DNA from: Tubiluchus corallicola
Taxonomy: Eukaryota; Animalia; Priapulida
Direction: 5' to 3'
Assembly (NCBI GenBank): GCA_030141605.1
Contig: JAQGDQ010000538.1
Span: forward strand, 1-64,000
Length of the DNA stretch: 64,000 nucleotides
The notes below the pieces were generated by a model, which was not told where the DNA came from, did no database searches, and was given only the letters and a program-made list of their open reading frames with translations. This document shows positions 4,360-56,400 of this stretch, in pieces; the first letter of the stretch is position 1; the number at the start of each line of letters is the position of its first letter. Position numbers and translations under genes: made by a program.

Positions 4360-34964
<30,605 letters not shown>

Positions 34965-37250: not shown

Positions 37251-38025
37251 ATTAGCTGTTATTCCTCATTGGCGTTGTTTGTGTATTAGTATATTTCGAC
37301 ATATTGTTTTTTTTACATCTGCCTCTTGACGAAGTAGTAGTAGTATGCATTTGTGTAACAATTATAGATTTTAGCTGTAACTGAAATATTTTACTTTAAT
37401 ATAGCTATTTACAAAAATTGTCTTGAAATTTAAATAAGTGGAAAGTTTCTGTTCATTGTTACTATTGCTACTGTTCAATGCAATGGTGATAAACTAATAA
37501 ACTTACTGCCATTTTTATCACTTGCAGTGGTTTAATGGTTTCATTAGCATGGCTTCATTCCATAGTAGGAATTTCCGATGACTAACGCAAAAAAGTTTAC
37601 CGTTTGTCTAATATTGTTTTATTTTTACCCTACTGTTTAACAAAATTTAATGACAGAAGGACGAAACCCTGTGCGTCTCTTGCAAAAAGTTTGACTTTAG
37701 TTATAATTTTTGATGCCTTGAAATAGTTTTGTTGGTGCCACGACACGAAGCTTAGCAAGGTTTAGTATTCGCAGCAAGCGAACTTCTGGGCATTTTAAAA
37801 TAAAGTATTTATTTATCTGTTCGTACAACTGCCACATTTCTTGTATGTAACCTGTGCAACATCTGACGAATTCAGTTCTCACATTTAGAATTAAGTAATC
37901 GTAAATGATAACACAACTGTTTTCTGGGCTTTGTGTTGGTTTTTGATTTTTGTTCTTCTGATTAGGTATTTTCATTCAATGTGTAGCAGTCCTTGTAAAA
38001 TAGGATTCGGATAAAGTTGAGAAAG

Positions 38026-38073
38026 CCGTCTCTAGATGGCAATAAAACATCCGGTGCATTTTGCAAGATGGCG
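38026..38073 (+). promoter_or_regulatory. Putative EPT1 promoter: ETS site and YY1 motif overlapping the start codon
   Basis: CTAGATGGC (38032-38040), ACATCCGGT (38047-38055, reverse ETS ACCGGATGT), CAAGATGGCG (38064-38073, contains the ATG). Confidence 0.55.
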
Positions 38074-41000
38074 ATCAAATATTTAAATACTCTTCAGCTA
38101 GAAGGATTTGATAGCTATAAAGTAAGTTGTTTACGTAAATTAAGCTGTACAAGTCGTTTAAATTCTGCCATATGGCTGTTTGATTGTTTCCCATAACATT
38201 CTGAGATAATTAGTTAAAATCTTAGGCTCTCACTCACTATATTGCAGTCACTTGTCAAGCTGCCAGTGCCAAGCCCATGACGGGTCATGAGTGATTTTTA
38301 GTGGCTCGTAGTGAACTGATCTTACTCTTTCCGAAGCTGAGTAACAATCACTCTAACTTTGATTGATTTGGTTTCTAACTTGATCTTAATTGTGACCTGC
38401 TTTTTATAAATAATCATGAAGCTGTACGTCGACATTCATCTAATACTAAGTAATAGCTTTTCTACACTATACTCTAGACTATGAGTATAGTATAGGATTT
38501 TATGATGATAATGATGAACTCGTGAAGCCATCTTATCCGAGGAGCAGTTTTTTGGTTGTAAAAAATGTGACCACAGTTTGCCAAAGTTGTCTAACAATAT
38601 TTTTGTTAATTACGTTTAAAGAAACGGATTATAAACTACTGTGACTTACCTTTTCATTTTGGTATGGACTTCAAATTCAAACCGATTTATCTTATATCAT
38701 AATCACGTTAAACTGTCAGTAACAAGCAGTTACGTAAAATGATTATGTGAATTTTGTGTAATAAAAAATAATTAAAATTACTTGAACTGATACTCAAGTT
38801 CATTGTTGACAACAAAGTCTCACATCTTCCTCAAGTTTTTCCCAATAATCTTATCTTAGTTTTACTTTGCAGTATAGCTGTGTTGACACCTCGCCACTGT
38901 CACAGTATGTGATGCATCCATTTTGGAACCAAGTGGTAAAGGTAAGCAGTTGTATGACAAGTTAATTTCTACAAAATTCTTTGGTGTGCTATTTTTAGCA
39001 TCTGAGGCTTATTACATCATTGCAATAGAGCAGATTGAAATCCATTTCAGATATAAATCACTCCAAAGTTGCACATTTCTAGCAATATATGGGTCCTTTG
39101 CTGCTTGTTCCTACTCATTATTTTTATGTCTTAACTGTTAAGTCAAATCAAAAATAAATATGTAAATTGTAATATGAACTCAAGTGCTCTATGTGTCCAT
39201 CATTTTCATTGCAACCTAGGTGAAGGCAGTTTTTCTAATATAGTTTCTCACTTCTTTAAGGAGTATTTTGTTCCGGTGCTCAGCAATTTTTGTCTTTAGT
39301 TCCTTTGCACCAAATAGCTCTGTGCAACTGTTGTATGTACCGTTGCCTCTCTTTAAAGAATCCAGAGTTCGTAGTCCAGACGTATTATAATGTCATACTG
39401 TGAAATTTCGACTTTGTAGGACACTGCTAATATTATTGTAATTTAAATTTCGGTACATTTTTCTGTGCCTCTCAATATAAATGTTATATTATATATTATA
39501 GGTACATATAATACTATGTATACTATATAAGTGGAATATTATATACATATAATATATCAGTCGTAACTGTACCAATATACTAATAGCGATATAGAAGAAA
39601 TTTAGTTTTTAAACCTAATTAAATATCATTTATTTTTCAGATATTACCACTATGGTTGGCTCCAAATGTTATGACTTTTACTGGGTTTATTTTACTAGTC
39701 ATCAATTTTCTATTGTTATCGTACTTCGATTATAGCTTCTATGCAAGTTCCGACGACAAACCTCAATTCCCGCCAGTGCCTCACTGGGTTTGGTTGTTTT
39801 GTGCTTTTAGCAACTTTATGGCTCATACATTAGGTGAGTGATTAAAAGCTTATTAGTAGTTATAGAATTGGACAGTTGGTACTAGGGATGTTCAGGATAG
39901 CGATATGTATCGATAATTATAGGCATAACTAGAGCAATGACACCAGAAAATTCTTCTAAGGCCAAGATATTAAAAAAATGAGAAATGATAAGCCTTTATC
40001 TCATTAGTGAATTAATTTGTTAAAAAATTGTTGATAATGTGCCAACGTTTTGAAAATCTGCTTGTACAAGGGGCGGTTGTTCCTCTATTAGCTACACCAC
40101 TGCAGCAATCACAGAAATGAACTAAAACATATAAGGCATCATTAGCAATAATGATGCATTGCCTTCAAAAATTTATTTGTTTAGTCTGAGCAGTTTTCTA
40201 AATTAAGAATTAAAGTCAGTAAAATTTAACACTTTCCCAAACTCCCATTCTAATTGTTTCCAAAAATGACTTTTTCTTGACTCCCAGTTCCAAGTCCACA
40301 GCTCTCAGTATGATTTAACCTTCTTACTAAAGTGACTAATCAGATCTATTGATATATCAGATCTGTTATTTGCATTTAAGCATTCTGTACAAATACATGT
40401 TTGCCTACAATCACACAACTTTCAGCTTGCGCTTTATGCTGCTGATTCAGAAAAATAAATCTAAAGGCCAGGAAATATTTTATTCTGGAGATTGTCAGAG
40501 GGCATATTACTTTTATTTAGTTGTTGTCTAAGACTAAGGCTAAGGCTATTTTTCATTGTTAGTTCTAGAAAGGAACATATTTGAGGGTTTCGAAGTTTCA
40601 GAAAAAAGATAGTCATATTTCTCATTGTGTAGCAAATGACTTTATTATAAATATTACTTATATAATGTGCTATATAAATAACTGCCTTTTTGAATGCTTT
40701 GTTTGAACCCAATATCAGTATTGTTTTAGAGAATTATTTGAGCTTGTGATTGCAGATGGCGCTGATGGAAAACAGGCCAGACGCACACAATCTAGTAGTG
40801 CACTAGGAGAACTTTTTGACCATGGACTAGACAGCTGGGCCACGTTCTTTCTACCAGTAGCCATGTATTCAGTATTTGGTAGACTCGATTATGGGATGAA
40901 TCCGTTAAGGTTAGTGTCGGCGTTTGTTCTTTAATGCACCACATACAGCTAATTTGTAATTATGTGTAGGAAAGTTTCCCTTTCTTAAATTGTTTTGTTA

Positions 41001-44000
41001 GCTTATCGCTTCAGAAAAAAATTTCAGTATATTTATTGTTTTTCTAAAATAACTAAACATTACAAAATCAACCTTTTCGTAAAAATCGTAAATTCTGTTT
41101 TCTACTTGCTCTGCATTTACTTTATGTCATTACTTGATTGTTAAAATGTTGTTTAACCAATTTTCACTAGTATGTGTCTAATTTCACTTTTGTTTAATCT
41201 TAGCGGTATGAAGATTTAATAAAAGCAAGTACAGATAAGACAAGACGTTATAATATATACAGTTTTACGAGACTTATTTTTATTAATTTTTCAAAACACC
41301 AAACTCCATACCTTCTATGGAATATGAGGTTGTTTTAAATACATTTAAAACAGTTTAGGATGCAAAGTGCACTGTAGTTGTTCAGTTAATATATGATACA
41401 TTATGAACATGGGGTCCAGTACTCCGAAACATCAATAAATATAATGTCTTGTAATTGTATATTAATGAAGATAATACTGCAAAAAATTCTAAAAAAATAG
41501 TGCCAATGTTTTTGTGTGACAAGAATTTATGCAACAAGTTCCTGTTCACTCAGAGGGCATCCTCATTTACTCAAATTTCTTACTTGTAAGCAACAAAATA
41601 CTTGTTGAACCATTTTAGGTAAATGATTTAAGTTAAAGGGGAAGAAAAGGCAATTATAAGGTTCTAATCATCTAATGTTTCAAAAAATTTCTATACAGTT
41701 ATATTATTTAGCATTATGCTTACCTGTTTGAAAGAGATGTTTAACTTGAAAAGAAAATTCTTAATAATTTAAAATGTTCATGACAACTAGTAAAACATCA
41801 CTGGCTCACTATCCTGGTGTGCCCCTAAAAACATTATCAGCTAACCAGAGGATATATTATTAATTTTATTAAAGTGATAAAGTAATTTATACTTTTGCTT
41901 AGACAATGAAGTGTACACTACAAGTGCTCTGAATATTTTTTTGAACTTTACACAGTTTTATCTAAATTTCTTACCCAGGAACTGTTGGTTAAAATAGCTA
42001 CTCCTAAGTGTCAGCACCTGAGTTAAAATTTCAAGTTTGAAACAGTATTGCTGCTAATACAAGCCTTGTATGTAGTAAGACAGCATGTACATGACACAAA
42101 GTTTCAAAAGGAAGAATTTAAGTTGTATGTAATAATTCTTTTTCCTTGTTTTTTTAATGCATGAGATATTTGTTTCCTGTTTTGACACTATAAAAACTAA
42201 CACCTTTAAGAAACTAGGAAAAAACTACAAAATATGTGCCAGATAAAGTTGTACATTTGTGGTAATTGGTGATTATCTTGTTTTAGGGTGTATTTTATCA
42301 TATGGGCAGTGCAGCTAACATTCATAGTTTCTCATTGGGAAAAATACCTAACAAAAGTACTTTTTCTTCCATGGGGCTATGATATTAGTCAAGTTGTAAG
42401 TATTTTTTGCTCTGTAAATGTATACATGATATATGTAATAAAATATGTTCTGGACAGTACATTTCGTTTGACAAATTTTTTATATTGTGTTTGCTAGACA
42501 GTTGTGCATATAATGTAGTATAAGTAATCATATGTGTATGTATAAGTAGTCAGTGATTTTGTGCACTTGGTTACAAAATATCTGCAAGCACGGTTAAAAA
42601 CTGGATGAGTGACCATTGAGAAAAAGATTTTGCAGCTGTTAGTTATAAAATATCTGCAAGCTCAAACATTCAGAAAAATATTTTTGGGTTGTTTCATTCG
42701 TCATGTTGTGTTTGGTTTTTTTTTATTTGAGGAAACATGTATACACATCTAGAAGTGGATAAGATACCTCTGCGGTTATGTGTCTAATCTTTGAGGATTA
42801 TTACTAATAATGAACAAAGTTTGCTGTTCTACTACACTATGGACATTACATTCGCAAAGCAGTACTGTTGGCTGTCTGTAAACTTTATAAAAAATGCTTT
42901 CCAGAAAGTTGAAAGAACGTGAGTTAGGGTCAGAAGTATTATCGCAAATGTTGCTAAGACATATTAATGGAAGACGAAATAGTTGAGTGGCTAGATGGAC
43001 GTACCATTTGTTTAACATAGTTTCAATTAAGTTAACAAGAATACATAATAACGCTGCAGTCCTGTCTTCAGTCCACTATTGACTTGCCACAATGTCACTT
43101 CACAGAAATGAGACCTGATATTTTTAACTACATTGACCGTCATCATTTTGATGTTTTTCATTTTTTAGGTGATGACTGGTGTCTACTTGATAACATTTAT
43201 AAAAGGATACTCTTTATGGAAAGTCAGTATTCATGTTGGCGCAGTAGAACTTACAATTCCATTAGTAGCTGAATGTGGAGTTTATGGTAAGTTGGCAGTT
43301 CAATTTTATCTCTGTTGTAGAAAATAGGAAAGAAATATTTTCTCAGTAAAGGCAAAAAGCATACCTGTCTTGAGTGTCAGATTCAGGCTACATGAAATCG
43401 GAAAATAATCGGAGATCAGAAGTTATTTGCTTGTTAAATAAGAAATTGCTTATCTGCCCTAAATGTAAAGCAGTTACATTAACTTTTTTCTAACGAACAC
43501 AAAGCTATAAGACTATGTTCACAGGCTAGGTGGCTGACAACAGCAAATTTCAAATGAGCTCAATATCCATGGTGGTGTTTCTTTTTTCTTTTCTTTTTGA
43601 AATAGCGGTTCATGTGTGGTGAATACTGTGACATTTTTAGTTCGTTTTTGGGTTGATGCCAGCAGATAGTTTACACTTAGGATATCCAATGATGTTTGAT
43701 CGCTTATAAATATTAACAGTTAGCAGTATTAGCACTAACTTGTTATTAATTACTACTTTCATCAGCATTGCATCAGTTATACAGTTTTTAAATGTATAAC
43801 ATAAGAACATGAAGCAAGTGGCTGTTTATTCGTTTGACGATGACGATATATATTATTCATTCATTAATATTAAATTTTATATGTAAATTCCTACATAAAT
43901 ATTTTCTAATAAATAAATTAATTAATCCGGTGTGCCATACGTTTGTCCTGTGAAATGAAATTATAAGTTGTAATGCAAATTTTTTTTGTATTTTTGTGTT

Positions 44001-47000
44001 TTGCAGTTTTCTCACTTGGTCTTAGTTTGGGCCAGAGTGCATGGAATATACGAAAGTAAGTTTATTATTAGTTACAATACGTGGACATTTGAGATTTTAA
44101 GACTTTGGGGCAACTATACTACAGTGAAAAGTAAATTTTCGGTTTTCGTTTTGGTTTTGTGTCACTTGCAGCTGACAGCAGTGGTCATCACATATTGGGC
44201 AAACACCTACCCCGTCTATACTTATGTACAAGTCGAATTTTCGGGTCAACTTACAATATGTATTTGGAGATGTTGCTAAAGAGTCGTCTACAATACGAAT
44301 ATGGGAAGAAATAATCCTGCATTATACCCTGGACTGAATGAACACTCATACTGTGATGCTTCACAAAATTAACAAATATTACTGTAATTTATTTTAATGT
44401 ATGTGAAATTAAGTTAAAATTTATATATTACTGGTAAATAAACTAGCGACGGAGCAGTCGATCAAAACATGAAAATCCCCAATGTTGTACAAGTGCTGCT
44501 GCCTGTCGGCTTCTGCAGGAAGTTTTACATTGGCCTTGTATATGCGTGTTTTGTTGACAAAATATCGATTACCAGCATACACGCGTATATAAAACACAGC
44601 TACGCAGAGGTATTGATTTTAGTAAATTGATTTATTACTCAGCCATTGTTGACATCATTTACTCTGGAAGATCTTAATATTTTATGGTCGACTTGTACAC
44701 AGCTAATATATAAAATGATGCAATTATTGGTCTTAAAATGCACATCGACTTGTACATAAGGTCGACTTGTAGACACATATATATGGTATTTTTCTATTGG
44801 ACAGACGCGTTTTCTTCGTCACTCGAATTGCACCTTGCAAAAAGTGCACATTTCAAGCTAGAAGCTGATGTAAATTATTTACTACACTCCTGTGCTTATC
44901 ATTTCACTGCTTATTAAAAGTAAAATCATTTGCTGTTTTATGTAAACTTTCTTGTGAAGTTATCTATAACCTAACATTTCCATATGAAAAATTTCGATCA
45001 AATTTAATGAACGAACAGTAAGAGCTTTTCAATGTAACTAAAATTGATTATTTTGTGGTGTTATTTTATCTCTAATTAAAGCAATTGCTGTACTTCATTA
45101 CTTGTACTCTTCTTCTAGGTCATATAGAGATAACACGGGCAAAATGCTTGGTGCATATGAGGCAATTGTTCCTCTTATTCCTGTAACTAGTTTGTTTATA
45201 ATTAGCGTTGTGTGGGCTTTTCTATCACCAAGCAACATCATAGACTCCGACCCGCGGATATTTTTCTTTTTAACAGGAACTGTTTTTTCTAATATTACGG
45301 TAAGTCAGTTACAGAATCTCAGTTGAAATTTTGATCAGTTTATGCCAGTGTAAAATGTATTTGGAATAAAGATTTTAACATGTATAAATTATATGTTCAC
45401 GTTTGATAATTAAATATCATGCGCTTTCTTGATTAATTGAAATTCTGCGAACAGGCCAAAAGCTTGTCATTCTGAAATTTTACGATTGGAGTTCATGCAT
45501 TATTGTGATATGATGATGTGAGTGAATGATATGAATTCTAGCAAGAGCCAAGGCACAGGCACAGTGTGAGTGATACGTTTCTATTTGTCTATGGTTTTTC
45601 TAGTGTTTTTAAGGGTGTGAATACATTTTGCTCAGACTGCTGAATTTAAAATTGTTTGTTTGACCTGATGCTCTTCTACAGCAGCTCAGTACAGATTCAA
45701 GATATCTTTGAAGCAAGTGCGATATCTTTAAGGAGAAATTAGCATATACAAGCCTTAATATTAGTTCACTATAGTTCATTTTGAGATAGTAAACACAGTT
45801 TTTTGCCTTTTTATTAAGGTGCTTTTGTGTAGCACTTGTTTTTTTTTGTATGTGAAATCAGTTTCTAAAAGCGTGATGTTTTAAAACGTTTTTAACTTTA
45901 ATAGGGGCTGCACTTGGCTTTTTGAAACTTTTACAATTTGGCTGCAACTTTTTGATATTTTTTGTGTATTATATTATAGATATATTATTAATAAAATACT
46001 ATTTTGTGTATGGTACAATAATATAGAAAACTTTCATATGGTCAAAAGAAAGCTAACCCATAACCTTGATAGATCAATTGTCTTGTTTAAGATTTACTGT
46101 GTAAAAAAGAGATTTTTTTAAATTATTACTGCATCCAGCAAAGATAAAATGATTTTTTTGCTTATTTAGTGTCGTCTAATAATAGCTCAGATGGCAAGCA
46201 CACGAGCAGAATTGTTCAACTGGTTGCTGATACCTCTAATCGGGTGCTTACTGGTGGTATTCTTTGTGCCAAGTTTAAGTCACTGGGAAAAACCCATACT
46301 CTATGCACTTATGGCATTTTGCACCCTGTGTCACATTCATTTTGGTGTAATTGTGGTAAGTGGTGCCAGCTTTAGCATAATGCATTGTGTTATAGAGATT
46401 TTTGTCTTCTCTGTGCTATAGCCTGCCCAATGTCAGCAGAAATGTTTATTTTGTTTTCATGTACAAATTGTTAAGCCTGCATCACCAGGTACTCTCACAA
46501 GTTTTGATCAGATTCTTAAAAAACTTCTTATGTAGCATGTTTTTTTAACTTTTTGCAATTTAATAAGAAGAATTGGGTAAAGAAATCCTATTTGAAGCGA
46601 GTTCAAACATTGTTGCATCTGAGATAGGTGCATCATTTTTTGGCTGCTAGCAGACTATCATCCAACACTCATGCAAAAAATGCAACTTTGTACTTAAGTT
46701 CAGTGTTGAAGGGTTTACATCTTCTGGGAAAATGAGAAACGGTAACAAAAAATCTTCATCTATCAAATTGTTTCTCCCCTTTAAAGCTTCTCCTAGATGT
46801 ATTACAGAAATTGTGATTCTCAATAGAGTTAGACATTTGCGTGTACAAGTTAGCTTGCATGTGATTAGCAATAGCAGCATATTTTAGTCATTGGAAGACA
46901 GTAACTTGAACTAGGTTTGGACATCATCATTTCTGACTCTTGGAAAAAGATTACGGTTATAAATATTATATCTAAGCAGTAATTTAGCAAAACTAAGAGA

Positions 47001-47486
47001 TGTAACCCTCAATATATTTTGTAATTTGAGGGTAAATTTTGTATATCGACTTAGTAAAAAGCTTTTTGACCTCAGTGGAGTAGGCCTATTTAGTTTTCGT
47101 GAGTATAAACAATGCCATGACAGGCACTATGTTTGTGCTTCTCATTCACGCAAGCAACAAACAGGCTTCTAATCTGAAAATTGTCTAGTTTCATGACTTT
47201 GTTTATGTCCATAAGAATTGTAAAATAGCAAACTGCACAGGTTATATTTTTATTTCCAAACTAAACCTAAATCCAGTTTCCAAAAACTAGTTAATCCTTT
47301 GCAATGAAACAGACTTTCAAATTTGCATTTGTCTTTTGACAACTACAACAAAGTGGATGCTGACAGTGTTTTGTAAACAGTTGCCAACCAGAGTTAATTT
47401 CATGTTTTTTTTTTCATTTCCAGGTAAGACAAATGGCTCAGCACTTAGGAATCAATGTATTCACACTTAAAAAAAAAGAAGATTGA
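38068..47486 (+). CDS. SELENOI: Ethanolaminephosphotransferase 1 / selenoprotein I orthologue (CDP-alcohol phosphotransferase), 10 coding exons; 391 aa to the TGA, 399 aa if TGA 47484-47486 is recoded (next stop TAA 47508-47510)
   Basis: Exons: 38068-38121, 38873-38941, 39641-39833, 40756-40909, 42287-42395, 43169-43286, 44007-44055, 45119-45299, 46170-46355, 47424-47486(47510). Motifs: [37 protein letters not shown], catalytic [49 protein letters not shown] (EPT1-type rather than CEPT1/CHPT1), [35 protein letters not shown]. Confidence 0.95.
44212..44786. mobile_element. Tc1/mariner-type (CCGT-ended, Tc2-like) MITE remnant
   Basis: CCGTCTATACTTATGTACAAGTCGA versus TCGACTTGTAGACACATATATATGG (19/25 inverted), TA on the right, three subterminal TCGACTTGTA repeats. 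Confidence 0.6.
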
Positions 47487-47630
47487 CAATTACTAGACAA
47501 TGCATGTTAATCTCAGGTGGGGAACAATGCGTTACCATGGAAACGCACTCATCTTGCTTTTGAGTAAACTGCGAAATGTTTGCCAGTTTCTGTGGTAACA
47601 TTTATTGCACCCAGTATTGCCATGAGAACA
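47484..47630 (+). promoter_or_regulatory. Candidate stop-codon recoding element: TGA-CAATTA plus downstream stem-loop
   Basis: TGA CAA TTA at 47484-47492; 14-bp helix 47531-47544 / 47586-47599 (two G-U pairs) with further inner and outer pairings. Confidence 0.6.
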
Positions 47631-50600
47631 AAATTCCTACAATGATCTATTCCAAATTTAAAAGTTATTTGATTTTTAGATTTTTCTTCGTTGGAATTAG
47701 ATTTTCAAAGTGATAAATTGGTACTATTGGGTGCAACGTCACTTCTGTCTATCAATGGGCAAAATGCCTTGTCTTTCACAACCTCAACCACGTTTAACTG
47801 TCAGCAAAATTTTTATTTGACTTTTATGGTTGTGTCAGGTCCAAAGTCCAGTTCTGCTCTTTTCTGTGCTTCTTACATGTCCAGAATAGATGTCAGTAAC
47901 GTTGCTTTGCTTTATGGTGCTAAATTTGCATTCTTTGATTGCAGAATTGTAATCATTTCATTCGCTCCTCATGTTTAATCGGGTTAAAAGGAAATCTGTG
48001 TGTTTAGTGCAATTGTGTGACAGTTTCTTAGCACTAAATGAAGATCTTGATGTAATGGTAAACAAAGACTAATAATGCTAACTTTCTGACATGCTGTTGC
48101 AGTCTTCATAACGGTAATAATGTTCCATAGTGTCATTATTTGCTTTGAATTATTGAATGTAATTATAACATGTGTTGTTTGATGCCATGTTAAAATGTTT
48201 CTTGTTTTTCAAATTTGGCTTTCGCAGTAGTAGTAAGTATGATAAGTGTTGTTTGCAACTTTTTACCACTTGTTGTTATCAGCTGTCTATCGATTTCTGT
48301 TTTCACTTTTTGCACTCTGACATCAGCATCCATTTGAACAAATATTGGCTAGTCATAAAGAAACCAAAGAACTTTTCTCAATATGTGAGTTTCGCACTCT
48401 TTACTATGATTTGTTATGAATTGTTGAGTGAGCTTATACATGTTTCTTATGTACTTCTTTCCATAAACTTGTTTTTTTTTTGGAAATTTGTTTGCTTTCG
48501 TTGTGGTTAGTGTACGTATTACTTTTTGCTCTGTTGTATTACAGTGTTTGTTGTTTCTGGCATCTTTCAAATTGGTATCCAGCATCAGTGTTGTTCGTAC
48601 TTTTCTTCTTCCATTGATGGTTGAGTTTGTTTAGATTCTGATAGATAGTTGTGGTACATTGTTGTTCCTTGGGATAATCATGCATTGTCTGAGACCGTAC
48701 AGCATGTAGATAATTGTGTTTTGCATTGTTTCCAACAACAATGCCAATGTTGATTGATAAGCTACCCATAAAATATGTACAAGTTCTAGAAATGGAGAGG
48801 TTTAGCAATATTAGTAATGTGGGTGTAATTGATTGATAATGAGTGCAAAATACTAAACAGTAGTAGAAATTACATTATTTTATATGCTCTGACTTAGCTG
48901 TATTATTATGGTATTTCTCAACTTTGCCACAAGTTAAAAATATAATTTTTGGAAACAATAGCTAAGTTATACTGTATTCTTTGCCTGTAATCTAGACACT
49001 TTACATACTAAGATTTTAGCTGCACATTCAGATAATTATTGTGCAACAACGAACTCTTCAGCCGTTTAAATATTTACCTATTGCTACAGAGCTATAGAAA
49101 TTCTTCAATTTTGTTAAACTTATAAGGTCTTAAAATGGATATAAATTAGGAAAATTAGAAGAAAATTTTTGTGTATTTTTTGTGATGTTCTAAAATATGA
49201 TTACCCGCACTAACAAAGACTTATAAAGATTAACCATGTATATTGCAGCAACTATGAATTACTAATTATGTATCATGTACATTCCGCAGAAAACGGTATG
49301 CTTAATCATTTGATGTGCATTGCTTTGTTTTTGGAAATGTGCATGTTGATGCTCATGCTGTGAAATATTCTTACTTTAGTAAATGTTTTGTACAAACATT
49401 GTACATTACAATGTACTTAATTATGTGAATTAGGTTACTTACCTATGTGGTTAGGTGCTTGCTGAGTTGTGAAATTTGACTGTATCATTAGCGCAGAACA
49501 TAACGAAATGGTTTAATTTAAACAGACTGAAACAGTTTTATGTTAGATAGTCATTATTAATGCCATTATTTTATTTTGGGATGAATAAGAAAATATCAAA
49601 CAATATGGAGAATTGTTTCTGGAAATATGCTAGGCAAAATTGTCTCTAAATCAGTTTTGATGTAAGCCTTGAATGTAGTCTTGTAGAGCAGCTCTCATTT
49701 TGCATATTTCGTAATTTGCAGTTTAATTTGCGCAGACAAAATCTGATACTTGCACAAGAATGAATGAAAGGAAGTGATCCTTGTGACTTTATAAACCACC
49801 AAAGCGATTATTATCTGTGAGTCAGTTATAAGTGCTGATTGTAAAAATGTCGATCCTTTGATTATTCTATTTTTATTGATATAATAACTTGTTATTAGAG
49901 AGAATCTGATGTTCTTACAAGTATGAATGGAATGATGTGTTATTCACGAATATATGCTGTGTTCCCAAAGCAGTGTATTATCAGTTGTAAAAATGCCCAT
50001 TTATTGCATTTTGATTGATTTTATTCACATTTGTATTTTTTGTGTTGAAACAGTATTAGCCGTAATAATTGTCTTTGTAAACTTGCATTAATTTGTCCTT
50101 TCTGTTATGCATATGACTTAAGTTATAAAAATTTGTAATGTTTTTGTTTTGAAAGTCATAGATAATTGATTTACTTATCTTGGCGGTAGATATCTGGTGC
50201 TTTTAATTAACTACACATTAGTTTTTAAGATGTATAGTGTACTTCGCTGTTTTAGCATTACTCTAATCAAAATTTATTGCATTTGTTTACTTTTTGGTAG
50301 AATCTGTAAATTTTGGTTAAAAGTTTCAGAAAAATTTGTTGTATAGTGCTAGTTTTCAACATAAGCATACAAGAATCGGATAAAGACTTGTGTTTATAAT
50401 GTTGCTTATAAACACACACACGCACGCGCGCACCATACATATATGCTTGTAATAATAACACATAAAGTGACAATTCTATGTACATGTATAAGCATTATCT
50501 CCTACTTTGCATTTTGAATTTTACAAGTTTTGAAAATAATCTTATACACGAAAAGCTAAGTTAAGAACCTTGCAGTGCTGTGCACAACAGCTGTTGTTAA

Positions 50601-51945
50601 AGTACAATCAACTGTGCTGTGAAATACAGTTATATTTATTTGAATGCAATAATAATTGTTACATTATCAATTAGTAAGCCTCTGAATCAACATTTGATAA
50701 TTCCACGATCGTAGCAGTAACAAACTTCTTCATACTACGCATAAATTTTTAATATTTGTGAACCGTTAAATAAAACTTTGTTGCCTCGCATATCATAAAT
50801 TGTTCTTGGCTAAGTAAGATGATGTAGTTAAGCAAAATGAACTCAGTTCATTAACCTAATAGACAACTTCACATTGTAATATTTTTGATCATGCTTTATG
50901 AACTGCATTGATAGTCTGGTGTGATTTTATAGCTTATTAGAGAGTCATGCTAATTTGAATGTTTTGACTGTGATTTGCAATCAGAATTCATGTTCGATTT
51001 TATTATTTAGCAGTAGTGAGATAACATTGCACACTGCACATGTCAGCAAATTGCTGTACCCGATCTTGTGGGGTACACATTTTCATACCGTGTAACAGCT
51101 TGTCTGTCAGATACTCTGTTGTTCTTTAAATTGGCACTTTAGATCATTGTCTGTGTTCGGAATGTGATCTTGCTTTCGTAGAAGCTGTAGATGAGGGACT
51201 ATATATCGTATGTTTTATATGTACTTCTCCCAAAAGTTTACTGATGAGTTTGCATTTTCAATAAGGCTCGAGTTTTGTATAATATTATGTTGTGTTGCAC
51301 TATGCTGTGCTATGTCATGATGTCATGCCATGTTGTTTGTTATGCTAGTTTATGTGATGCAGAATATGCTGTGTGGACTGCCAAGTTTCTTAACAGTGTG
51401 GTGCATACCACTCATGCTTCTTAGCTGATTGGAGTTGGTTTGTAATTTGATAGCAATCAAAAAAACACTAGCATATCTTTTAGGCAAGCTGCTCTAATAC
51501 ATCTTTTCGTTTCATATCATGATGATAATGCAGCAAATGTAGCAGGCTTTAGTTGAGTTAACTTTTGCAATATTTGGGAAGTTTTGTAGTGATTGTGAAA
51601 ATAAAACATGTTGCACTTTTCTGTCACACTTAATGAGCATTGTTAATTTACCATTATTGTCTTGCTTTTATAATTGTTCTAGTGATTTATGGTTATTTGC
51701 ATGTAATTACGATTGTAGTGACAGTAGAAAATGTTGTGTAGTCAATTAATAATAATATGTACATAATTTACTGTTTCAAAATGATGTGTAATGTGTACAT
51801 GTAATCAGTAGCTCTGTACATAATGTTTTGTAGAAATTTTAAGCATTGCTATATGTGTTTCACTGTGGACATCGTAAAACAAGCAAGTGCTTGTGTATAA
51901 TTTAAAAACATTTCATATGCAGATGTACTTAATAATAAATTAAAT

Positions 51946-51967
51946 TATATATATATATATATATATA
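51946..51967. repeat. (TA)n microsatellite near the EPT1/DEPTOR convergence, flanked by AATAAA motifs
   Basis: tatatatatatatatatatata with AATAAA at about 51934 and 51976. Another candidate EPT1 polyA signal lies at about 51600. Confidence 0.75.
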
Positions 51968-53479
51968 ATAAGGAAATAAATAATTTTTTATACTAAAAGT
52001 GTGTTTGTTTAGCTGTTTCATATTAGAGTTGGTTAAAAAAGGTTCTTGTCTAGTTCCCAATCTTTCACAATACAGTATAAAACTGAACATTTCAAAATCA
52101 TTCGTGTTTGATATCATACGAGTGTTTTTAACTGTGTGATTGTGGTCAACTTGTAATATTCCCCGGAGTACAAAAAAATGAGTAACTAAAATGTTTAGTC
52201 ATTACTGTTATCTTTATAATCTATTTGTAGAAAAACTAGAACAACTACCCTGTTCACAACCCACATTTTGACCTGTCATTTAAATAAAATCTGAGAGGAC
52301 TTTGATCATAAAACATTGTAATATCTATAAATTATTTAGAATCTAATACCTATATAACTAATTTCCTATAAAAATGGTATAGCATTAATGGCAATGTATC
52401 AGTTCAGTACAGAAAGACCTATTATGCCATGGCTTTACCATCACTAGTAGACAAACTAAAGTCGCAGTCGTGTCACCATTGCCAAGTAACTGCACATTTG
52501 AAAACCTGCAAATTATTTAATATTAAAACATCTGTGGCTTGTCTAGCAACTGGCACCTAAACAATAACATCCTGTAGGCTTTTTGTTATTTTTACCAAAT
52601 CCTGCTAACTTGGCTTTGCATTGAACCCATGCACTCTATCAGTGAATTTAATAAAGCTCTAGTTTCAGGCAACAGATGATGCCACATCCATGCAAACAAA
52701 ATTAATAATTTCAAAAATTCAATAATTGTACATTATTTACTTGTCACACAATTGGTCACTCATATATCTAAAAGTAGTTAAACTGAGAGTGCATTGCACA
52801 AAGGCTTCTGAATGTAATTTCCATAGAAGATTTACAAAAAGGATAATTCTCATGTTGAATATATACACACACTATTTACACACATAAAAAACTAATTTGC
52901 TGCAGGTCTCTTTAACAGCAGTTCAAATTTAAGTTGTCAAACCGAACCACTACCAAAACGCTTACATCTTACAGGACATTCCCAAGTTTATGACTTCCAT
53001 GATCAATTCTGTTAAATATACAACTCCATCTAGTGGATCAATAATTATTATTAATTAATAAATCAATATTGCACTTTTAAGTGAGCTTTTTTATGTAAAT
53101 CAACCCTGATTATACATACAGAATAACACAATTTGTTACTTACTTCTTTTGCTGATGTAGTAAATACGAAACAAACTTGACAAAATTTGTTACAAAATAA
53201 ATTTATCAAACAAAATCTTCAATTGGTGTTTACCAAAATTCATTATCGACGTAACATCAAAGCTCCAGGCCCAAAGCTTTCCTCAACAAATCATGCCAAA
53301 ACATCTGCTGTACTTAACAAAGGTCTAGTGTAGCCGCTCATCCCTGTATAACACAAAAATGCACCATAACGCGTGGCAAATTTTCATGTCCACCCTACTG
53401 CACACTTTCAGGGCTAAGTGTATGGCCTGTCATTTTTAACAGTTCAATGTCAAACACAGTCTACTAAACTCACTAATGA

Positions 53480-56400
53480 TCAACTGATAACATTGACAAC
53501 AGTCTTGTTTTTGCAATATACCATAATGGTTAAATTCACAATGCCCATTGGACTGTTGATAATCCGCTTAGCCACCACTTGGTGAGGCTGACGAAGCACA
53601 TTCTCTCCATTCACTTCACACAGGTATTGTCGAATCTGTAAGTAAATAGAATTTAATATCAAAGAAGTTACCAAAGATCTGCAAATATTATGCACACATT
53701 CATCAATAACCTAACACTTTGATTAATCTTTACAGTGTATTATAGAGTGGTAATTTTTTCAAAATTAATGACAATTTTTTCTGAATTTAGTAAAGTAGGA
53801 ATCAGAAAAAACAATCCTTGAATAAACTGTCTAAGCAATTTTACTTTTCCATTAAAAAATCGGGCAAACAATACCACAAAACAACTCAAATGTCAACATA
53901 CCCTGAGACCAGCTTCATAAGCTGGACCTTTAGGATCAACAGTCTGGACAAACGTTGGACCGTTTCCGCGGACTACGAATCCATATCCGACGGAATCACT
54001 GACAACCCGCAAACTCTTTTTTACATACGGTGAATTTGGATTTTCCAGTTCTTTAGCGCTTACTTGTCTAACAACTACAACAGTAGAATATTAATGCAAC
54101 ATTATTATTATTATTATTATTACTATTACTAGATTTATGAACTAGTAAGAAAATTGGAAATAAACTAACTTAGGCTAAAGGATAATGATTGAATCCAAAC
54201 AAATGTCCTTGCGATTTTTATAATTAACAAGTTGCAACCATGAATAACGAATTATTATTAAGTTTATAAATTATTATTAGACCAACAGTGATTAATTATT
54301 AATAATGGGTTATTATTATTTTGCTAAAAGCGTACCAGAATGAGGTAAAACTGCCACCCTATCTGGCTTATTAGACAGAGAAGAACGCTGATGTTCTACG
54401 TCATCAGCATCCTCTCCACTGTCAATGGTTTCGTTGTCATCACTATCATAGGAGCCATTACGGTTATAGTCACCCGACTCGTCAAATGACATACATCTTG
54501 ACTTGTCTAAAAAATGAAATATTCATTAATTTCAAAATAAATTTTATTACTTCAATAAATTAAATTGCAAACTTAAAAAACAAATATCGTAAAACTAAAT
54601 CGAAAGTATTAATGGACGATTAATGATACATTATTACAGAGATCTAATGCTATCAATTCTCCAGGTATATTTATGGAGTTATTGATACAATATGCAATTT
54701 TCTCAACAACAATTGAATGATTTGTGGCAAATTGCATGTCATACGAATCATCAGTCTCCGGTGGTCCCATGAGGTGTTTATTTTTTAATTCGAGACGTCC
54801 AGGAGGCCTTTAAAAATGGGCGTTTTTCACAAACTTATAAAATTGAGGTCCGAAAAGAACAGGTCCTGTGAAAGACAGGATGCTATATATCATTGAAAAA
54901 AGCTTTCAACATAGGGTGTAATAGATATAATTTAGTTTCCTGGAAGATTCATGAGCTACCAACCTGTCACAGTAACTGTTTTCCGGGAACCATCATTCCA
55001 AATTGTTTCAAAAATGCGCAAATGGGATGAGATGGGTCTAAAGTGTAAATGTTTCTTTTAGATACACATTCACTTAAAGAAATGGGAGGAGGGTGTAATT
55101 CAGAATTCTTTTTCAATCTCCCTATAACTGCGTGTTTTTGAAACAGCAACTTGTCTTTCACGACTGTTCCACGACATGGTAGTATACTTTACTTTCATAG
55201 TATATTTTCATTTTAATTTTATTCTCCTTGTAATAGTGTTATTATTGTTGGATCACTTTTGTTAATTTAAATTATAGTTCTGATCACGGTAGAATTAAGT
55301 GCCAATTTTCATTCAAGATTTCTTTTGAATGAGAGTAATAAGTAACTCGTATATGTATACTTACGTATGATGCCTAGACCTATCTATACTCTTTACATAT
55401 ATCCCAAGTAATACACAGTCTTTATAAATTAACTACCTCACATTGCATAGAGTACTGCAGTAACAAGCCGGCTGGCATGCCAACTTGCAAAGCCAATTTT
55501 TTTCCGGGAAAAGTTTTCCTGTTAATTATTGTATACCTCCACCTCAATCACCTGCTTCACAACATTAACAAGTATTTCTGTTGCAAGTAAATTAAAAGCA
55601 ATGTAATTAGTTATAAGAATAAGCCTTTTTAAAGTTTCACTGTATACAAGCACAGTTGCTATACGTCAAAGGTTAAGTGAACCAAGCAATATGTCTTAAC
55701 TACAACTGTCATGTGGCAGGTGGGTAAAGCAAAGTCGTCTGCTGCATCAGTTCAATTGATTTACGTGGAGTTTACTTAATTATTCGTTAAGGACCTTGCT
55801 TGGGAACAAGAAAAAATGCTCGATAAGCTTCTAGCTAGCATTAAAACTGTTACTATTACAATAGCATGGGGTGCGAGTTGTTGTCAAGTGTACACAAATG
55901 CATTCTCTGGTTCTCTTAACCTCTGGCCTTTTTACAATCATCATCAATCACTGGAACTGTGAAAAAGCTTATTCTACTCTTCCGGATATATATATTAATA
56001 TTTTTACTTTTCCACTGTAACCTCTTAGATATAGCAGCCACTTGCCTTATTTCAGATGGGTTTCTTATTCATACTGTAAGAGCAGAATTAATACAATAAC
56101 CAGTCCATATTTACACCTCTGGAAAATTGATTGAGTGAAAGTCAGCTAAAGCATTACTAATATAATCACCTCCATGATACGGCATGTATGGAAAGTTACT
56201 AAGGGAAATCGCAGAGATCTTACGCGTGACGTCGACGCTGCGATCAGGAGACACAATAGATGAAATTCGTCGATCGGTCTTTCTGTCTGGACTATGATCT
56301 GAAAACCGATGAAATGAAATAACAACATCGTTAAAATCATTAGTGAGAATATGTGAAAAACTCTTGCCTTTGTCACTTTTAATTATACAATAATTAAATT

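Follow-up and report, generated by a model that had tools for sequence, protein, structure and literature searches.

A probably leaky UGA codon and a conserved seven-codon extension at the end of a priapulid-like EPT1 gene

The window, that is, the whole 64,000-nt stretch of DNA analysed here, harbours on its forward strand a gene that sequence comparisons identify as an orthologue of EPT1/SELENOI, a CDP-alcohol phosphotransferase. Its coding exons were delineated by tblastn using EPT1 of Priapulus caudatus (P0004) as the query:

38068..47486, + strand: EPT1/SELENOI orthologue, 10 coding exons, 391 aa
38068-38121, 38873-38941, 39641-39833, 40756-40909 and 42287-42395, + strand: EPT1 exons 1-5
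43169-43286, 44007-44055, 45119-45299, 46170-46355 and 47424-47486, + strand: EPT1 exons 6-10

All introns have GT-AG borders, the 391-codon frame is open from the ATG at 38068, and the last coding exon starts at 47424, with a CAG acceptor upstream. The encoded protein harbours the PF01066 catalytic motif and is 71.9% identical to Priapulus EPT1 over 391 residues. Its best named matches are EPT1 rather than CEPT1/CHPT1 proteins, and Priapulus EPT1 is its sister with a support of 100 in two trees, both computed with EPT1-like rows only; this placement points to a priapulid-like animal as the source of the DNA. Contigs of run X2 span three internal exon junctions, and positions 47196-48017 are covered by no contig of either X1 or X2. 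A homologue search with the exon at 45117-45296 returned no match. Upstream of EPT1, at about 20300-34300 (+ strand), lies a multi-exon, Rho-kinase-like gene; it has exons encoding coiled coils, a match to PH_MRCK at 31998-32147 and, at 33718-33957, a C1 domain. An exon of a convergent gene at 53893-54090 (- strand) appears PDZ-like by eye, with no Pfam match at an E value of 0.001.

The following features were identified at the end of the EPT1 coding region:

47469..47483, + strand: K-K-K-E-D, C-terminus of the form ending at the stop, a KKxx/KxKxx motif predicted to mediate COPI retrieval (compare R-K-K-E-D in Priapulus)
47484..47486, + strand: TGA, likely leaky stop; TGA is also found in 15/15 distinct readthrough-type loci (see below)
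47487..47492, + strand: CAATTA, a CARYYA readthrough hexamer; the +1 codon of the orthologues is CTA (14/15) or CTG (1/15)
47487..47510, + strand: extension Q-L-L-D-N-A-C with the second stop TAA, seven conserved codons

An earlier, sequence-only reading of this DNA proposed that the TGA is read through and acts as a sorting switch. The lysines that it described at -3, -4 and -5 are indeed present, at 47469-47477 (its interval, from 47472, omits the first of them), and the tail of Priapulus EPT1 is T-I-R-K-K-E-D. Downstream of the TGA, the codons CAA TTA CTA GAC AAT GCA TGT precede the TAA at 47508-47510. The combination TGA-CARYYA alone is found at 7 of the 2,503 TGAs of the window. When we scored the window with a 24-nt post-stop profile trained exclusively on 15 other loci, the 24 nt following the EPT1 stop obtained 16.6 bits and ranked first among the 2,503 TGAs and first among 127,952 24-mers. 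An error in the length of the A run before the stop is unlikely, as the frame matches Priapulus upstream of the stop and the other loci downstream of it. A -1 frameshift on the same A run was rejected as well: the stimulatory structure of such events usually lies 5-9 nt downstream, and structure is absent within this distance.

The 15 loci come from metagenome contigs, which were scanned once with a degenerate pattern of the last exon. This yielded 50 loci, 29 of which are EPT1 last exons, and the other 21 were dropped as chance matches. In 20 of the 29 EPT1 last exons, a D/E-TGA-C sequence is found at the homologous codon (two codons later in L018), followed by a matching tail. Removal of five duplicates (four identical over 100 nt, and L007, one base away from L006) left 15 distinct readthrough-type loci that belong to five lineages, the window adding a sixth. 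Loci with enough sequence were placed among insect and crustacean EPT1s with supports of 94 and 97; six loci of one lineage, which consist of the last exon only, are absent from this placement. The arrangement is absent from 9 of the 29 EPT1 loci, including five in the pancrustacean-like clade. The extensions of the loci read L-L-A-D-S-T-C, L-L-A-D-D-A-C, L-L-A-D-S-A, L-L-A-D-N-A, L-L-D-D-S-A-Y, L-L-P-D-S-T-C and L-T-A-D-S-T-C.

Sequence conservation is highest just after the stop. Between lineages, identity is 0.65 for the first 24 nt after the stop, compared with 0.47 for the last 24 nt of coding sequence and 0.32 for nt 25-48; the corresponding values between the window and the loci are 0.62, 0.49 and 0.23. 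Both TGA-C and the Asp codon GAC at +4 are invariant in the window and the 15 loci (16/16). Codon pairs differing by a single base are synonymous in 12 of 23 cases, against 25% expected (binomial p 0.004, with non-independent pairs and with 7 codons and 6 lineages only). The second stop lies at codon 8 in 10/10 sequences devoid of an earlier TGA (TAA in 7, TGA in 2 and TAG in 1). The final Cys is present in the window and 8/15 loci, and it is lost in the other seven, once to Tyr and six times to TGA (L009, L016, L018, L036, L042 and L048), codon 7 being TGY elsewhere. These six TGAs were also considered as Sec codons, but the codons beyond them are not conserved, and they are thus probably plain stops.

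Two observations might point to a conserved 3' UTR RNA element that is not translated, or to an alternative splice acceptor, rather than to a translated extension: identity after the stop exceeds that of the coding flank, and the +4 codon is always GAC and never GAT, which hints at a constraint at the nucleotide level. However, the excess of synonymous differences argues against this explanation, as do the presence of an in-frame second stop that varies in identity and the end of the conservation at that stop. An acceptor downstream of the first stop was rejected, since AG occurs at no shared position (L006 and L019 have none close to the stop) and there is no polypyrimidine tract. In addition, L016 aligns with residues 1-390 of P0004 in a single HSP, with the same stop and tail, indicating that splicing does not remove the stop at that locus. 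We therefore hold an untranslated element or acceptor to be very improbable. In reporter assays, UGA-CUA and UGA-CARYYA are both leaky, and a direct test of the single CAAUUA-to-CUAUUA change has been made within the OPRL1 context (PMC4132726). Given the conserved stop context, the coding signature of the tail, the fixed second stop and the first rank of the window in the profile search, programmed readthrough of the EPT1 UGA is likely, and on this point the sequence-only reading is supported.

Two hairpins were predicted in the proximal 3' UTR:

47531..47599, + strand: hairpin 1, with a 14-bp core stem (47531-47544 / 47586-47599); z -3.06
47605..47736, + strand: hairpin 2, with AUGA at 47622 and GA at 47712 atop its basal stem, in a SECIS-core-like arrangement; z -4.80

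The 47484-47760 segment folds with a z score of -4.79, and the proximal 3' UTR contributes two of the three tiles with the lowest scores among 99, the two hairpins making it the most structured part of 38000-53800. Neither hairpin is common to the 15 loci, where no stable fold was found (z between -1.1 and +1.5). Stimulatory stem-loops have spacers of 6-12 nt from the stop (PMC3159437), whereas the core stem of hairpin 1 starts 45 nt after the UGA, and the EPT1 sequences thus depart from the pattern of structure-stimulated readthrough. The GC skew flips near 52000, which bounds the EPT1 3' UTR at about 4-5 kb. Contigs of run X2, which we guess to be of RNA origin, match patches of this UTR (48474-48713, 48837-48949 and 49599-49657) at roughly 80-90% identity, and their coding pieces are 92-96% identical to the window, suggesting that they come from a related organism or a divergent allele in which islands of the UTR are conserved.

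In vertebrates, EPT1 is known as selenoprotein I and carries Sec 387 close to the predicted cytosolic C-terminus (PMC8540796). The sequence-only reading overlooked that the UGA of the window appears to correspond to the position of selenocysteine in vertebrates. The vertebrate EPT1 proteins end at S-L-R-K-P-N-S-D (beaver and cat), S-L-R-K-P-T-P-D (bird) or S-L-K-K-M-N-S-E (hagfish), and we take this break-off point as the Sec codon. In a stop-anchored alignment, Lys at -5 and Asp or Glu at -1 are common to vertebrates, the window and most loci, the alignment requiring an indel of one residue downstream of the last Phe; the stop form of L018 ends with K-T-N-S-D. Judging from this alignment, the UGA of the window sits about where vertebrates insert selenocysteine, in a K-x-x-x-D/E-UGA context, with the one-residue indel. 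Of note, a tick EPT1 (P0136, Dermacentor) ends with S-L-K-R-P-P-V-E, eight residues past the last Phe, exactly as in vertebrates. The SELENOI extension is described as having no known function and no Cys forms (PMC3316567), and according to PMC13134290 no homologue outside vertebrates includes the Sec position. Reviews present the Sec tail as vertebrate-only, of unknown function and dispensable for catalysis in vitro (PMC3316567, PMC13134290, PMC8540796).

These data raise the question of whether the window UGA could encode selenocysteine as in vertebrate SELENOI, with hairpin 2, for example, serving as a non-canonical SECIS. Beyond the alignment with the vertebrate Sec codon, the AUGA and GA of hairpin 2 top a 16-bp basal helix, a pattern that occurs three times in the 47.4 kb upstream with helices of at least 14 bp. 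However, the Rfam SECIS models had no match in 47400-53500, in 47480-47800 or in 18 loci with 0.5-2 kb of 3' flank, and our own strict SECIS scan, for which the scanner had no positive control, returned none in 4.9 kb of 3' flank. Furthermore, helix II and the spacing of the apical AA of hairpin 2 are non-canonical for a SECIS, the structure is not common to the loci, and strict maintenance of a CUA/CAA context is what one typically sees at near-cognate readthrough sites. We favour near-cognate readthrough over selenocysteine insertion, for which we see very little chance in the window. Lepidopterans are not known to have Sec machinery.

We then considered the form of EPT1 that ends at the UGA. 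The AlphaFold model of P0004 (mean pLDDT 96.8) superimposes on human CEPT1, CHPT1 and Xenopus CHPT1 with TM-scores of 0.78-0.85 over about 390 columns, and both termini of xlCHPT1 were assigned to the cytosol by the positive-inside rule (PMC10182977). By homology only, the C-terminus of EPT1 is thus predicted to be cytosolic, as the sequence-only reading had assumed. That reading also proposed a C-terminal KKxx-type signal for COPI-mediated retrieval to the ER. Strict KKxx or KxKxx motifs are present in the window and in Priapulus; they are found in 9/84 distinct protein tails and in 0/15 loci. If one considers the known variants of the COPI motif (PMC5798408, second-hand after Ma and Goldberg 2013), the picture is different. 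Variants are present in 12/15 loci (HxHxx in 6, KxRxx in 5 and KxHxx in 1), against 1.6 expected from shuffling the last seven residues, and in 15/18 distinct tails that share the seven-residue D/E ending, against 1.7 expected, bearing in mind that the shuffle control accounts neither for common ancestry nor for the positive-inside bias to which juxtamembrane tails are subject, and that many tails are lepidopteran. The residues at -5 and -3 thus swap between K, R and H with the position kept. Elsewhere, variants are found in 2/9 non-readthrough loci, 12/60 other tails and 0/5 eight-residue tails, the latter including those of vertebrates. They are absent from L018, L019 and L047, and two of the five lineages are wholly devoid of them. 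After readthrough, none of the 15 loci matches a COPI variant. The position-dependent motif of the sequence-only reading is therefore kept among the loci as variants, and its strict form is not. We regard the conservation of COPI variants in readthrough-type tails as suggestive only, and infer from the motif that the stop form may bind COPI. Acidic residues at -1 and -2 may weaken dilysine signals.

With respect to the readthrough form, the same reading proposed that the extension creates an acidic dileucine signal. In the window, E-D-X-Q-L-L does fit the [DE]xxxL[LI] pattern, and D-X-Q-L-L fits DxxLL. The Leu pair is found in the extensions of 13/15 loci, the other two having L-T, at +1/+2 compared with +2/+3 in the window. 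Neither [DE]xxxLL nor DxxLL is found in any of the 15 orthologous loci, where the nearest patterns are [DE]xxxxLL (6/15) and R-xxx-LL (5/15), and the spacing suited to AP or GGA adaptors is thus private to the window. The CAA codon for Gln, which differs by a single base from the CUA found in the orthologues, is most readily accounted for by its place in the CARYYA readthrough motif. The window keeps a Leu pair in spite of Gln at +1, thanks to Leu at +3, which hints at selection for LL. Leu pairs close to acidic residues are also found in the longer main-frame tails of L004, L039, L041, L050 and P0125, which have no leaky stop; the tail of L039, K-R-G-E-H-R-L-L-P-T-E, looks as if sense codons had replaced the stop.

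The exact version of the sequence-only reading, in which readthrough creates an acidic dileucine that AP or GGA adaptors recognize for transport of EPT1 to the TGN or endosomes, would account for the two patterns of the window, for the prevalence and apparent regain of the Leu pair and for its presence in the main frame of these non-readthrough proteins. Nevertheless, it is at odds with the lack of either spacing in the orthologous loci and with the two L-T loci, and a Leu at +1 follows necessarily from the CUA codon of the readthrough context. We consider this version unlikely. Since the acidic spacing of the tail varies, we take loss of the retrieval signal, rather than gain of an AP or GGA signal, as the main switch. 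The sorting switch as initially proposed is therefore plausible in the part that concerns the loss of the retrieval signal, and its acidic-dileucine part is not supported by conservation.

We propose the following mechanism. A near-cognate tRNA would read UGA-CAAUUA in a minority of translation rounds. Upon termination, EPT1 would end with the predicted COPI motif and be returned to the ER. Upon readthrough, the end-anchored signal would be buried and a short tail with Leu-Leu, Asp and Cys added, such that a minor pool of the enzyme might leave the ER and stay in, or pass through, the Golgi. We judge the arguments for the whole switch, i.e., readthrough, burial of the COPI signal and exit of the longer form from the ER to the Golgi, to be evenly balanced. 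An active role of the L-L-x-D or x-L-L-D tail with its final Cys in export or Golgi residence is speculative. Vertebrate SELENOI has been reported in the Golgi, based on an overexpressed tagged protein (PMC8540796). Its stop-form tails are devoid of a COPI motif, unlike that of the window, and we count this as an argument for the retrieval-loss model. Against the model, a 2026 Drosophila preprint predicts relocalization for only 22 readthrough genes (PMC13278127).

It is also conceivable that readthrough is real and that the tail acts in another manner, through its invariant Asp or its terminal Cys (by lipidation, redox chemistry or partner binding), or by affecting stability or activity, the basic residues before the stop representing a mere juxtamembrane patch. 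The strict conservation of Asp at +4, the terminal Cys of the window and eight loci, the presence of Sec, a Cys analogue, in the same tail of vertebrates, and the fact that LL spacing is not among the best-conserved features all favour such a function. Conversely, the Cys is lost in almost half of the loci (7/15), and the pair of basic or His residues at -5 and -3 is kept in 12/15. We regard another tail function as possible though doubtful, and the burial of the retrieval signal as the better working model.

The EPT1 case has much in common with readthrough of the OPRL1, AQP4, MAPK10, OPRK1 and tobamovirus type (Loughran 2014, PMC4132726), namely UGA, C at +1, a CUA or CAR-YYA context, a short conserved extension and a fixed second stop. 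It differs in that the EPT1 family uses both contexts, CAAUUA in the window and CUA in the loci. The evolutionary signature is the same as for the abundant readthrough described in insects and crustaceans (Jungreis 2016, PMC5100048), with orthologous loci among pancrustacean EPT1s. That study confines abundant readthrough to Pancrustacea, whereas the EPT1 event, being common to a priapulid-like animal, would be a single event older than the pancrustacean burst. A further parallel is provided by the peroxisomal readthrough extensions of LDHB and MDH1, in which a minority isoform also reaches another compartment. Readthrough of LDHB and MDH1 adds an end signal, whereas that of EPT1 would mainly remove the end-anchored COPI signal of a membrane enzyme. 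If the sorting model holds, EPT1 would thus represent relocation of a membrane enzyme by removal of such a signal.

Vertebrate SELENOI itself is another related system, an orthologue with an in-frame UGA after K-x-x-x-D/E near its predicted cytosolic C-terminus and a short tail after it; in the window, no canonical SECIS was found, and the stretch from the last Phe to the UGA is one residue shorter. A probably recoded UGA at a matching place in priapulid-like and arthropod-like animals is a candidate ancestral state for the Sec tail of SELENOI. We tentatively put forward a scenario, which we deem possible rather than probable, in which the EPT1 UGA was leaky before the split between priapulids and arthropods, perhaps since early bilaterians, and served as an ER/Golgi toggle by COPI burial. 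A vertebrate SECIS would then have captured the leaky UGA, making Sec mainly a selenium-controlled switch for readthrough into the tail. If true, this capture would explain why Sec is outside the active site and without Cys homologues. Invertebrate EPT1 readthrough would also provide a selenium-free system for probing the role of the tail.

Our literature search brought up no report of readthrough in an invertebrate EPT1. In Drosophila, EPT is encoded by CG33116 and CG7149 (PMC7721134). Neither gene was found in one of the two supplement files of PMC5100048, nor in the text and part of the supplement of PMC13278127, searched by names and FBgn identifiers in tables with some nameless rows. They were not found either in two small files of PMC3840789, a weak search. 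The two genes might still be listed under another identifier. New here are a non-arthropod member of the probable EPT1 readthrough family, the swap between CUA and CARYYA and the COPI-variant pattern. Of note, the Drosophila paralogue bbc is a tier-2 readthrough candidate with a TAG stop (PMC13278127).
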